Assembly (NCBI GenBank): GCA_019057375.1
Contig: DXJF01000114.1
Location: forward strand, 44,632-108,631
Reading direction: 5' to 3'
Source of the DNA: Candidatus Heimdallarchaeota archaeon
GTDB lineage: Archaea > Asgardarchaeota > Heimdallarchaeia > Heimdallarchaeales > Heimdallarchaeaceae
DNA: 64,000 nucleotides
Position numbers and translations under genes: made by a program. Under the pieces are notes generated by a model. That model was not told where the DNA came from and made no database searches. It saw nothing but the letters and a program-made list of their open reading frames with translations. Positions 26,456 through 56,396 of the stretch are shown piece after piece (position 1 is the first letter of the stretch; each line of letters begins with the position of its first letter).

Positions 26456-26587
26456 TCTATCACTAACTATATTTTCTTGGTCTTTTTATACTTTCTTTCT
26501 TCTCTCCTTACTGAAACTCTGTCTAGATGGGTCCTTCCAGCACTATTTCTACATAGATTTTTATAATTTGCTTCTATATGACATCTA

Positions 26588-28257: not shown

Positions 28258-29922
28258 GTGACAGTTATGGAAAAAACTATTCTCCTTGGATATGAATATG
28301 ATTACGGTTTAACCTCTAATGAAATTTCTATAGATATTGGTGAACTCCTCTATAATGTTGAAATCTATGGAATGATTGGAAGAGGAAAAACTCGCTTGGT
28401 CTGCAGTATTATTCAACATCTTTTTCACAATAAAGTACCAAGTTTGATCTTCGATATCAAGGGGGAATATGCTGCAACTTTTGCTACTGAACCAAATGTA
28501 GAGATTTTTACAATTGGTGCTCCTCATCCACTCTGTATCAATCTTTTTGATACCAAAGATGAAGATGATGTCAGTGGAACACTCTTAGTTATTGAAGAGA
28601 TGATGGTTTCTTCTAACCAAGAATTCAGTCCTTCGATGAAAAACCTCTTTGAAACAGCTCTATTCCTAACCCACAAAGCTGAGGTAAGAACACTAGAGAC
28701 CTTTGTTGAAAACCTAATTGCTCTTGCTAAGAAAACTAAACAGATCAAATCAATACAACATACCTTAGATGCTGTTCTTAATAGATTAAATTACATCTTA
28801 AATCCTATCAGTTTTGAGATTTTAGGAGTCTCTCAAACAACGTTAAACTTCGATATGTTAGAGCAAGGAAAAAGCATAATTCTTGATCTTAGCCAATTTC
28901 AAAAAAGGGCAGCTAGACCGTCGGATATCTACCTTATTTGCAATCTTATTTTGAAACTATTTTACAAGTATGCATCCTCTAAAGAACTAACCAACAAGTT
29001 ACGTTATGTTGTGGTTTTAGAAGAAGCGATTAACATTATACCTCACTTCTATAGAAAACAGAGTTCAGCATCCTTGATTACAGCTGAAAACAACTTCTTA
29101 CTTGGTAGAAGTCTAGGTATTGGTCACATAACTATATCTCAAATGTGGAATAGTGTGAGTAATGTTGTTCATGCAAATTCCTCAACTAAGATTGTTTTTC
29201 GTTCAGGTCAGGAAATAGAGAAAATTGCTAAAGCTCTAAATCTTCAAGATTTTTATTTCAAACGTCTCCAACAACTACCAATTCGTCATTGTTTCCTCTG
29301 GAAGGATGGTCAAGAATATGTCAAAGAGATGACTACAGTTAATTTTACTCTTGAACCACTCAAATACGACCATTATTTGTTATTTCTTAGAAGAAAATAC
29401 CATTCTTCTACTTATCCTCTATTATTTAGCAACTTTATTGATATGCGAACAGCACTCTACGATAAACTAACCAATACCAAGAAAACCAAACAAAAAAAGA
29501 AGGAGAAACCAGTTGAAAATAACCAAATATCTAAGAAAAATCCAGATTCTCAAAAGGAAATTACAAGTAAAGTTGAGCAATTCAAGAAGATATTTTCAGA
29601 AGAAATCAAATTTCAATTAGATGATGTTTGTTTCACCTTTTGTTCTTTAAGCAAAGACAAGAAGAAATGTATGAAAATTAGAAAAGATGCAGAAAGAGTC
29701 AACTCGTCTCTACTGAAGAGATTTACAGAGTATGAGATTAAACAAGCTATACTTGAAAAATCTCAGATATCAATAGATGAGCTGCTAAAACAAGTTCTTC
29801 TAGAGAACAAGCTGTCATCTAATAGTCAAGTACTATTTTGTGCAAAGAGAGAATTAATCAATTTTTTGATGAGAAGTGACCAAGAATTATCCTTCAATCT
29901 TTCTAACAATTCAAAAAAGTAG
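28258..29922 (+). CDS. HerA/DUF87 (FtsK-HerA superfamily) ATPase
   Basis: Walker A GMIGRGKT, IFDIKGEY, Walker B VVLEEA, arginine-finger region GRSLGIGHITISQ, NSSTKIVFR. Confidence 0.85.
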   Translation: MTVMEKTILLGYEYDYGLTSNEISIDIGELLYNVEIYGMIGRGKTRLVCSIIQHLFHNKVPSLIFDIKGEYAATFATEPNVEIFTIGAPHPLCINLFDTKDEDDVSGTLLVIEEMMVSSNQEFSPSMKNLFETALFLTHKAEVRTLETFVENLIALAKKTKQIKSIQHTLDAVLNRLNYILNPISFEILGVSQTTLNFDMLEQGKSIILDLSQFQKRAARPSDIYLICNLILKLFYKYASSKELTNKLRYVVVLEEAINIIPHFYRKQSSASLITAENNFLLGRSLGIGHITISQMWNSVSNVVHANSSTKIVFRSGQEIEKIAKALNLQDFYFKRLQQLPIRHCFLWKDGQEYVKEMTTVNFTLEPLKYDHYLLFLRRKYHSSTYPLLFSNFIDMRTALYDKLTNTKKTKQKKKEKPVENNQISKKNPDSQKEITSKVEQFKKIFSEEIKFQLDDVCFTFCSLSKDKKKCMKIRKDAERVNSSLLKRFTEYEIKQAILEKSQISIDELLKQVLLENKLSSNSQVLFCAKRELINFLMRSDQELSFNLSNNSKK

Positions 29923-30310
29923 GTTCTTCCTCTTCTCCCCATAGCAGTCAACTTTCTCTATTCTTTTTCATAACTCTTCTTCATTCTAATTATTCTTTTT
30001 AGAATGATTTGGCACAAAATTTCTGTGGTGCTAATAATATCAACCTCATTCTAGATTCCTGATAGGCAAGAATTACAACCAAACCTGTAATTCTTCGCTT
30101 TTCACCTAAAAGGAAAAAGGAGATGAGAAAAAAGAATAGGTAGTTCTTTGAGATCTTATTCGAATTCCTGAAGCAATTTTACACGTAGTACTTATCATTG
30201 GTTCCTCTACTGGTTTCAAACTGAGAAGAGAAGAGGATCCAATGATTTTCGACAATTCGAAAAGAGTTTCAGTGTTTATAATACACTTCCAATTTCAAAA
30301 GGTGAAAACC

Positions 30311-31846
30311 ATGAAAATTGAAGAAATTAATGAACAAAAAGAACTACAATCAAAAGTCAAGAAACATGGAAAACATGGAGAAGTCAAAAGCATGTCTCAA
30401 GCACCATTAGTTACATTCTACGAGGTTGTCCCTTTGAGAATCAAGACGGAATTAATGTCTGTGAGAGAGTGCGAAAGGTTGCGAAGAATAACCGAACGAG
30501 ATACCAGAATCATTCGAGACTACCTCAGAATCATCAAACATAACGAGGAGAATATTCTGCAAAAAAACGGCAAAGTCAATACGTCCCTGTTGGATAAATT
30601 GACTTTAACCACATCGAAGAATACGAAGAACAAGTTACGGACATCTGTTCCTCATGACTTGAAGAAACGTTATCCCCGTTGCTCTTTTGATGAATTCCAA
30701 GAATGCAGAGACAAAGCTATCTGGACTTATGAAAGCTGGAAAGCACAACAAGATGTTTCCAAAAAGGAACTGAGTAGACCAAAGTTTAAGAATAAAACCC
30801 CCCGACCCTTGTTCAAAGGAACAGAAGGCAGAGGTACATTTCAGGTACATTCCAAATCTGATAATACTGATGCTAGACTTTGGCTGGAGTTAAGGGATTC
30901 TCTTGATACAAAACGATCTGGCAAACGAACCCATCAGAGACTATGGCTACCATTAGCTTACTCACCTTACCACGAAAAGAGGTTGAAACTAGAGAACATC
31001 AAAATGATGGAACTAGTACGCAAATCCAAAGAACAACAGTGGTGGGCACATTTCACCCTCCAGTATTCTGTCTCATGTTACCAATCCACCCTTCCACCTG
31101 CAGTGTTAGGAGTAGACCTGGGAATAAAGAAGACAGCTGTTGCAGTCTTACTTACCCCTACAGGCAAAGTAATTATGGATGAAATCCGCTTCATCGTCAA
31201 TAAGGAGAGACAGTCTAAGATATGGCAACTTGAAAACCAAATCGAGGATACTCAGAGAAAGTTGAACAAAAGTCTCAACAACGGTCAGCACACTAAACAG
31301 CTTAACACTACACTCTTCCGTCTACGTAGAAGACGACGTTCTATTATAGAACAAGAACTGGGGTATGCTGTTAACCAATTGGTTGATTTCACCCTTCAGT
31401 TGAAGAAGCGTTACAATCTGTTTGTGTCTGTTGGCTATCCTAAGAACATTCAGAAAAGTCAACCTCGAGGTAGTGGAAACAAATCTCATAGAAGACGATT
31501 ACATAAATGGTGTTACCGTCTTTTCATTACTAAGCTGAAATATAAGCTTACTAGCTATGGGTTTGAACCTCTTCGAGTAGTAGCTGTTAAGGAGAGCGAC
31601 ACCTCTAAAACATGTTCTAGATGCAATTCTACAAACACTACACGTACAGGACAAGGACAGTTCAATTGCCACGATTGCAACTACGTACTAGACGCTGACT
31701 TGAACGGAGCAAAGAACATAGGAAAGAGGTTGATTCGATATGTATTGAAATCAAAGTTCAATTATATATTCGATATATTAACAAAAGAATGCTATCCACT
31801 AAGACACTACAAGTCTTTCCTGCCCTTAGGTCAATGGCTTAAGTGA
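30311..31846 (+). CDS. tnpB: TnpB-like RNA-guided endonuclease with a rearranged RuvC site (ORF track starts at 30242; ATG 30311 follows GGTGA)
   Basis: RuvC-I VLGVDLG; RuvC-II VSVGYP (Gly instead of Glu); VKESDTSKTCSRC...CHDC Zn finger; RuvC-III DADLNGAKNI. Confidence 0.9.
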   Translation: MKIEEINEQKELQSKVKKHGKHGEVKSMSQAPLVTFYEVVPLRIKTELMSVRECERLRRITERDTRIIRDYLRIIKHNEENILQKNGKVNTSLLDKLTLTTSKNTKNKLRTSVPHDLKKRYPRCSFDEFQECRDKAIWTYESWKAQQDVSKKELSRPKFKNKTPRPLFKGTEGRGTFQVHSKSDNTDARLWLELRDSLDTKRSGKRTHQRLWLPLAYSPYHEKRLKLENIKMMELVRKSKEQQWWAHFTLQYSVSCYQSTLPPAVLGVDLGIKKTAVAVLLTPTGKVIMDEIRFIVNKERQSKIWQLENQIEDTQRKLNKSLNNGQHTKQLNTTLFRLRRRRRSIIEQELGYAVNQLVDFTLQLKKRYNLFVSVGYPKNIQKSQPRGSGNKSHRRRLHKWCYRLFITKLKYKLTSYGFEPLRVVAVKESDTSKTCSRCNSTNTTRTGQGQFNCHDCNYVLDADLNGAKNIGKRLIRYVLKSKFNYIFDILTKECYPLRHYKSFLPLGQWLK

Positions 31847-32010
31847 TTCTGCAAAGAATACATCATTTAGCAATATTTGATGTGCGAGGTCGAGAATCTG
31901 TCGTTTCACTTGTTTGACTGATTCAGCAATGAGTGCCCTTTATCAGGAGATGAATCCTTTGAACAGATTTACAGCAATGTAAATGTTCCAGAAAACTAGT
32001 ACTGTAACTT
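31846..32010 (+). ncRNA. Candidate omegaRNA (TnpB guide scaffold)
   Basis: Four GCAA-capped hairpins on the tnpB sense strand directly after the stop codon: 31846-31859, 31860-31883, 31921-31934, 31961-31988. Confidence 0.7.
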
Positions 32011-32331
32011 ATGAAATATTCTATTTTTCATTTTACAGTTATGCCTCCTTGCCTACCCTTAGCTACGCTAGTTTAGGATGAGTCTTGAAAGGATCTATTT
32101 GAAAATCGTAAGGTTTTTGAAGAGAAAATAACTCATTAAAAGTTTTTTGTTTCGTTTCCATTCTCTTTCCTTTTCCTTTTTTTTCTCTGTAAATGCTTAT
32201 GTTTTGATTGATTTTAATAGAAAAAAGATAAGGCATAATAATAACCTTGCTTGCTTTTTTTCGATTTTTTCTTCTATTTTTGTTCCGTTTCTTTCTATTT
32301 CTTTTTAAATTTATTTTAAATTCTCTTTACC

Positions 32332-56287: not shown

Positions 56288-56396
56288 TGGTGCCTCAACC
56301 GGGATTTGAACCCGGGTCTGCGGATATTCCTGCTTAGTCACGCGGACTTTCTCATGTGAAAGTCCGCAATGATTGGCCGAGCTACACCATTGAGGC
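56288..56396 (-). tRNA. tRNA-Glu(TTC) with a 31-nt anticodon-loop intron (37/38 or 38/39)
   Basis: Acceptor GCCTCAA/TTGAGGC, GCGGA-CTTTCA-[insert]-TCCGC, T arm CCGGG-TTCAAAT-CCCGG, encoded CCA. Confidence 0.9.

Follow-up and report, generated by a model that had tools for sequence, protein, structure and literature searches.

The 64,000-nt stretch of Heimdallarchaeote DNA analysed here (the window, with a GC content of about 34%; all coordinates are window positions, and the sense strand of tnpB is the plus strand) carries a tnpB gene whose 3' end runs into a long region of conserved and structured sequence. Gene and region belong to an element (30003-32136) which is most probably a non-autonomous TnpB-only insertion element, its last ~312 nt encoding the scaffold of an omegaRNA. 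The TnpB protein matches the Pfam family Cas12f1-like_TNB (E = 1e-16) and scores 101.3 bits against NCBIfam guided_TnpB, for which the cut-off is 100, and its best relatives of solved structure, as judged by alignment, are Cas12f/TnpB structures. In the motif VSVGYP glycine stands at the expected position of the RuvC-II glutamate, and the glutamate of VKESDTS aligns with the proline of the Cas12f sequence 'dpqyTSq', where both Cas12f and TnpB carry proline (the region of 31433 and 31592 covers the two motifs). Read from the sequence, these glycine and alternative-glutamate motifs would correspond to the RuvC-II-rearranged (RIIr) pattern (PMC10691335), with no placement in a clade implied. The genome holds at least 25 TnpB-like genes.

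Copies of the element were collected by nhmmer. Six other copies in the same genome, and about 15 from sister species, are homologous from near 30003 to 32136, each with flanks of its own. The seven copies of the genome share 71-81% nucleotide identity, and homologues are present in 12 of the 24 sister species searched; a motif scan of metagenomes returned one additional full member only. The 3' flanks of distant TnpB relatives, which belong to another family (36-40% identity), failed to align with the scaffold. The ends of the element, GATTTGGCAC... and ...TAACTCAT, show no inverted relationship, and terminal inverted repeats are absent. Such asymmetric ends with subterminal hairpins are a trait of IS200/IS605-type elements; the hairpins are P8 at the right end and, at the left end (30068-95), one whose arms are kept among the copies and whose loop varies in length.

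The 3' flanks of seven and then of 22 distinct loci, all from one Heimdallarchaeote genus, were aligned, and the drop in conservation was taken as the boundary between scaffold and guide, as in PMC10278001. All 22 loci remain conserved over the 290 nt that follow the stop codon, up to a sharp break behind TAACTCAT at 32136 (the terminal conserved sequence is ...GAATAACTCAT); from there on every locus is different. The guide is therefore predicted to begin at 32137; a second match to it above chance level was not found in the genome. An earlier note on this DNA (the original prediction) had proposed this kind of alignment as a check, and a drop-off was indeed found, at 32136 and not near 31988, where that note had let the scaffold end. 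A second clade, with about 46% TnpB protein identity (six loci compared), has an analogous 3' region of ~290 nt, which ends in TAACTCAT in five of the six. The core motifs GCCAATGGCT, AATGAGT, GAGATGA and GAGTCCT are common to both clades, and the elements ACATCG/CGATGT, GAACAG/CTGTTC and CCUACC..GGUUUAGG may be shared with what looks like the same RNA family in other genomes.

At its 5' side the scaffold overlaps the coding sequence only slightly. Synonymous-site identity in tnpB does not rise upstream of ~31820, so there is no evidence of a conserved RNA reaching deeper into the gene. Within the gene, conservation is lowest over the C-terminal tail of TnpB (31736-31816); the final seven codons (PLGQWLK) hardly vary in nucleotide sequence and fold as a hairpin. 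The stop codon itself alternates (alignment A1 columns 44-75, window 31844-31875), being a TGA after QWLK in 10 of the 15 loci scored and otherwise a TAG nine codons further on, in the loop of helix P2, so that the last nine TnpB residues of some copies are translated scaffold. With these two stop positions the overlap comes to only ~22-49 nt, and to ~22 of 312 nt in the window copy, which bears out the earlier view that the scaffold lies mostly downstream of the coding sequence. No meaningful small open reading frame was found in the scaffold and none is conserved; since, moreover, whole helices are gained and lost as modules, the scaffold can be regarded as non-coding. Two criteria for an omegaRNA apply to its position: it has the same orientation as tnpB, at whose 3' end it lies, and it stops at the right end of the element.

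The consensus structure was built from the pair probabilities of each sequence, averaged on the 22-sequence alignment; RNAalifold, run separately on this alignment, gave P0, P1, P2 and the long-range pairing of ATGAGT with ACTCAT. The consensus comprises 91 pairs, in which 88.7% of cells are paired compared with 35-50% when the partners are slid, and 36 of the pairs show compensatory (both-side) changes compared with 8-20. For all five pairing measures, every one of 500 shuffles stayed short of the observed value. An unbiased scan of all column pairs placed the consensus helices on top again, with P5 as the best match, and revealed no further helices or pseudoknots. Two pairs of P0, within the last codons, have compensatory changes that are synonymous, and the closing pair of P1 changes from U-A to C-G in five loci. 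P5 has three pairs and 13 cells with compensatory changes, and encloses P6 together with a variable module that the window copy does not have. P8 ends 11 nt before 32136, in agreement with the 3' stem-loop found about 10 nt from the guide in other TnpB scaffolds (PMC10278001).

Several helices are lost as whole units, namely P3 in five loci, P4 in six (it is shortened to GAACAG/CTGTTC in three others) and the tip of P6 in three (L002, L019 and L006). The outer GAAC/GTTC stem of P4 has two compensatory pairs and its apex TACA/TGTA is also supported; its middle stem ATT/AAT is found in the window copy only. P4, P5, P6 and P8 lie within a predicted closing helix, ATGAGT/ACTCAT, which joins the last six bases of the scaffold to a site about 200 nt upstream. 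It was tested on 25 sequences, the second clade included, and is paired in 150 of 150 cells, with a double change from G-C to A-U in one locus (ATAAGT/ACTTAT) and a U-G pair in another. This suggests a plausible counterpart, predicted from sequence, of the guide-adjacent pseudoknot pairing of other omegaRNAs.

Table 1. Features of the TnpB element and its surroundings, in window coordinates.
Feature	Position	Strand	Details
HerA/DUF87-type ATPase gene	28258..29922	+	directly upstream, not part of the RNA; Pfam DUF87, E = 7e-15
TnpB-only mobile unit	30003..32136	+	~2.1 kb; left end, tnpB, omegaRNA scaffold to right end
Left-end subterminal hairpin AAGAATTACA / TGTAATTCTT	30068..30095	+	perfect 10-nt inverted repeat
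Imperfect palindrome enclosing the tnpB ATG (30242)	30194..30246	+	25-nt arms, 80% complementary
tnpB	30242..31846	+	534 aa, RNA-guided endonuclease family; motifs GVDLG, VSVGYP, VKESDTS, DADLN
omegaRNA scaffold (candidate)	31825..32136	+	312 nt in the window copy; 245-337 nt in homologues
P0 hairpin CTTAGGTC/GGCTTAAG	31825..31843	+	in the last codons (PLGQWLK); 8 pairs, 98% of cells paired
P1 (hairpin 1 of the original prediction)	31846..31859	+	5 pairs, 98% paired
P2 (hairpin 2 of the original prediction)	31860..31883	+	8 pairs, 5 with compensatory changes
P3 hairpin GAATCTGTC / GACTGATTC	31894..31924	+	9 pairs, 4 with compensatory changes
ATGAGT, 5' strand of the long-range closing helix (pseudoknot-like)	31929..31934	+	RNAalifold, independent prediction
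P4 (hairpin 4 of the original prediction with outer extension)	31958..31992	+	optional module; alignment
P5 long-range helix AAACTA (31993-98) / TAGTTT (32069-74)	31993..32074	+	6 pairs, 97.6% paired
P6 hairpin ACTGTAAC..ATGA / TCAT..TTACAGT	32001..32039	+	13 pairs, 4 with compensatory changes
P8 subterminal 3' hairpin	32094..32125	+	14 pairs, 9 with compensatory changes, many G-U
ACTCAT, 3' strand of the closing helix	32131..32136	+	last right-end bases; RNAalifold, alignment
Predicted guide TAAAAGTTTTTTGTTTCGTT	32137..32156	+	first bases past the conservation drop; length inferred from other TnpBs

Structure favours the tnpB strand. Plus-strand folds are the more stable in 21 of the 22 loci (mean -86.8 vs -73.4 kcal/mol), and the consensus procedure yields 91 pairs on this strand and 53 on the reverse complement, where P5 and P8 vanish completely and P0 loses its outer half. 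Folded as its plus strand, the 315-nt sequence of the window copy gives z = -1.68, compared with -0.19 for the minus strand. Cells with G-U outnumber those with A-C (188 vs 47), an asymmetry that is partly circular because the structure was derived from plus-strand folds. The idea of a strand-specific folded omegaRNA at the tnpB 3' end, taking its guide from the flank, is in this way supported by conservation, covariation and strand asymmetry alike. The same data bear on the possibility that the conserved 290 nt are a right end of the transposon that acts only as DNA, with single-strand hairpins that a transposase would read. Subterminal hairpins used by TnpA are known from IS200/IS605-type ends (PMC10278001), and both P8 and the left-end hairpin would fit. 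However, signals for a transposase call for tens of bases rather than 312 nt of covarying helices; a search of the genome gave no Y1 transposase; and P0, P5 and P8, which depend on G-U pairing, fail to emerge on the opposite strand, G-T being weaker in DNA. A purely DNA-based function seems to us quite unlikely; a DNA-end role and an RNA role are not mutually exclusive.

The element is often preceded by the HerA-like gene. This gene, or a C-terminal remnant of 40-120 codons, adjoins the left end in 10 of the 16 clade-1 loci and in none of the six of clade 2; the loci concerned include L002, L004, L005, L014, L016, L019, L020, L030 and L032 (window 28258-29922 and 29620-30003), and the adjacency holds for every copy in the genome with an assembled upstream side. 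In several copies the HerA stop codon falls within the conserved left-end sequence GTCATAAAATTTC. In the other six clade-1 loci there are ordinary host genes and no full HerA upstream, two of them keeping a remnant of ~30 nt; the host genes beside the HerA-less copies encode an ABC ATPase, EAP30/Vps36 and a pyridine-nucleotide oxidoreductase. HerA homologues are also found without TnpB. It is unlikely, in our opinion, that the HerA-like ATPase and the TnpB/omegaRNA pair form a co-inherited two-gene module in this genus, of which the long modular scaffold is a part. If this were true, the module could be a cargo-carrying element with an omegaRNA right end, or a functional pairing of a HerA translocase with an RNA-guided nuclease.

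A related explanation would make TnpB a domesticated and immobile protein that works with the HerA-like ATPase as an RNA-guided regulator or defence system, the scaffold serving the host. The frequent adjacency just described, which includes all testable copies of the genome, would be expected from it, and so would the position of the window copy in a variable island; the flanks of that copy have no counterpart in the 24 sister genomes. Such a partnership is nevertheless hard to reconcile with the six loci among ordinary host genes and with the HerA homologues that occur without TnpB. Moreover, there are several diverged copies per genome, and what follows the scaffold varies from copy to copy, also where the TnpBs are 83% identical, which is the mark of mobility and not of a fixed target. 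Domestication must consequently be considered very unlikely.

Some observations on the copies and their surroundings can be added. Two solo fragments of the scaffold's 3' terminus, both ending in TAACTCAT, were found in the genome. One of 40 nt (G000:C72:9895-9934; L005 1325-1367) follows the copy on the same contig, 142 nt beyond the right end of that copy; the other, of 85 nt (G000:C153:21580-21665; L008), stands alone. Older insertions may have left them behind, or they may be additional guide units. The clade-2 copies L033 (G017:C13) and L035 (G005:C62), from different species, have the sequence GTTACAAAACA.ATTTATG in common after the right end; these insertions are orthologous and their guide has been stable since the species split. 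The palindrome around the start codon of tnpB recurs as a reverse self-match in copies L002 and L006 and, lying in a conserved leader of 240 nt, may be a hairpin that controls translation. A motif of ~42 nt (AAAAGTAGGTTCTTCCTCTTCTCCCCATAGCAGTCAAC...), placed at 29915-29956 between the stop of HerA and the element's left end, has counterparts of 93-95% identity in three sister species and on the contigs C22 and C28. Further away, ~55 nt at 26465-26520 match three sister genomes at 88-95%, the DNA around them being without match, and a 106-nt tRNA match on the minus strand (56291-56396) suggests an intron-containing tRNA gene.

The conserved region might also be a structured 3' untranslated region of the tnpB mRNA, controlling stability or translation, or an unrelated small RNA, in either case with no guide function. 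A long and hairpin-rich structure is what such a region could show, and post-transcriptional cis-regulation is known for IS200/IS605 elements (PMC10278001). Conservation nonetheless stops at the exact end of the element, and the guide-adjacent pairing together with the 3' hairpin is typical of omegaRNAs, which leaves this explanation scarcely credible. In addition no Rfam family matches, with zero hits at gathering score in the whole window or at E <= 10 in 29900-32300; this null result says little because Rfam holds few omegaRNA models.

The original prediction had drawn attention to four hairpins with GCAA loops. These exist as described: ATTCT-GCAA-AGAAT (31846-59), ACATCA..TA-GCAA-TA..TGATGT (31860-83), ATTCA-GCAA-TGAGT (31921-34, with one U-G) and GAAC..ATTTACA-GCAA-TGTAAAT-GTTC (31961-88), the GCAA starting at 31851, 31870, 31926 and 31974. 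In the window copy the repetition is beyond chance, since 5000 dinucleotide shuffles of the 143 nt contained a mean of 0.73 GCAA (P(>=4) = 0.0018) and four GCAA each closed by flanking pairs occurred in none of them. Taken as a whole, the 171-nt stretch is not more stably folded than its shuffles (plus strand z = -0.20, minus strand z = -0.82). The repeated loop is not a feature of the family: the same stretch holds 0-2 GCAA in the 21 homologous loci, the loop of hairpin 1 is of the GNRA type in 12 of the 22 loci, and that of hairpin 2 is GCAA in the window copy only. Hairpins 1, 2 and 4 are real helices of the scaffold, the last one optional, and only the third is unsupported. Hairpin 3 is able to pair in the 17 loci that have it but without any compensatory change; its 5' arm, which the 3' arm of P3 overlaps, is deleted in five loci where its 3' arm is invariant, and it competes both with the covarying P3 and with ATGAGT/ACTCAT. 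It is at best an alternative conformer.

A short scaffold made of these four hairpins, ending at 31988-31990 and followed by a guide of ~20 nt at about 31989-32010, is hardly tenable and is refuted by the alignment: 31989-32136 is conserved in all 22 loci and contains the covarying P5, P6 and P8, the proposed guide falls on P5 and P6, and a guide would vary between copies, whereas variable sequence begins only at 32137, some 150 nt further on. The case is a caution for readings made from a single sequence, as the fourfold GCAA turned out to be the least conserved feature, and the apparent end of the run of hairpins was not that of the RNA.

The interpretation that remains, a TnpB-only insertion element whose right end encodes an omegaRNA scaffold, is given a probability of roughly 85%. 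It is based on the identity of the TnpB gene, its occurrence in several copies with different flanks, the sharp boundary, the covariation and the strand bias. A hairpin near the guide, as P8, and pairing of the guide-adjacent bases, as predicted for ATGAGT/ACTCAT, have both been described for TnpB omegaRNAs (PMC10278001, PMC10097598), and give further support. In the predicted layout P0, in the last codons, would be followed from 5' to 3' by P1, P2 and P3, and then by the ATGAGT that pairs with the final ACTCAT; inside this closure would lie the optional P4, P5 holding P6 and the variable module, and the subterminal P8. By analogy with characterised TnpBs, a transcript would read through the right end, so that the 16-20 nt after 32136 become the guide. 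TnpB would then bind the scaffold, probably trim its own mRNA at the 5' side, and cut DNA that carries a target-adjacent motif (TAM) and a match to the guide. Such a target would be the empty donor site, and its cleavage would favour retention of the element.

A number of points weigh against this interpretation. The RuvC-II glutamate is replaced by glycine, so that nuclease activity would depend on a presumed alternative glutamate (PMC10691335). A Y1 TnpA (PF01797) was not found in the genome, which is 89% complete, and neither was a transposase next to the copies of the element; the genome has four genes with a resolvase domain, none of which adjoins the element. Neither the 24 sister genomes nor the metagenome collection yielded an empty site for the window copy. 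HerA remnants make the left-end flanks partly homologous to one another and confound a search for the TAM there. The predicted guide has a run of six T at positions 7-12, and T-runs could stop transcription early in archaea; the bacterial promoter and terminator models run on the scaffold region are uninformative for an archaeal host. As to the RNA itself, its 5' end is set solely by the loss of conservation, and the paired share of the consensus is inflated, the folds behind it having come from these very sequences. The closing helix hardly varies and has only one compensatory event; 26 of 500 shuffles reach its observed value.

With the limits 31825-32136 and a guide from 32137, this is a well-bounded candidate omegaRNA for a multi-copy TnpB family of Heimdall-group Asgard archaea. 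The absence of P3, P4, the P6 tip or the variable module in some copies amounts to a natural deletion series, which shows the parts of the scaffold that are dispensable. In the literature searched, a single paper links TnpB with Asgard archaea, and its groups are other, Cas1-linked ones. The Asgard-linked groups of PMC10691335 are associated with Cas1 and have a hypervariable region followed by the motif GTTCACTCA, and these traits were not seen in the Heimdall element. The element would resemble the RIIr clades of Altae-Tran et al. (2023, PMC10691335), such as RIIr-5, by the glycine at the RuvC-II glutamate and a glutamate before the zinc finger, and because these too are mobile, multi-copy elements with the RNA downstream of tnpB. 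In Fanzor omegaRNAs (PMC11423790), too, the scaffold is long and variable in length and follows at the 3' end of a gene for a TnpB-like nuclease with a shifted catalytic glutamate; Fanzors, however, are eukaryotic or viral, and the likeness is one of layout.

The 59 TnpB orthologues surveyed by Nety et al. (2023, PMC10278001), among them clades with a rearranged RuvC-II, have processed scaffolds of 79-466 nt with a very different hairpin content; all that these have in common is a stem-loop no more than 10 nt from the guide. TnpB was found there to trim its own mRNA. The predicted Heimdall scaffold falls within this range of lengths, is rich in hairpins and has a 3' stem-loop near the guide; its family is not known to be among the 59. 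The original prediction had considered a scaffold lying mostly downstream of the coding sequence a different architecture. It does differ from that of ISDra2, in which a functional scaffold of 116 nt overlaps the C-terminal tnpB codons (PMC10097598), but it is not new: it has already been described (PMC10278001, PMC10691335), omegaRNAs being located downstream of tnpB with scaffold-guide boundaries found in many branches (PMC10691335).

Compared with ISDra2, the Heimdall scaffold has no sequence similarity, overlaps the coding sequence by only ~22 of its 312 nt, is far longer and has optional modules. In ISDra2 the bases -5 to -3 pair with -105 to -103, in a pseudoknot which is reported to be common to all Cas12 guide RNAs (PMC10097598), and in the Heimdall scaffold the guide-adjacent bases are likewise predicted to pair far upstream, -6 to -1 with about -208 to -203. 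This likeness is limited to pairing, the closing helix having been read from the sequence, and a pseudoknot or triple-helix topology is not implied by it. In both, a hairpin lies just upstream of the guide (PMC10097598), and in both the sense RNA at the tnpB 3' end would stop at the right end of the transposon and take its guide from the flank.

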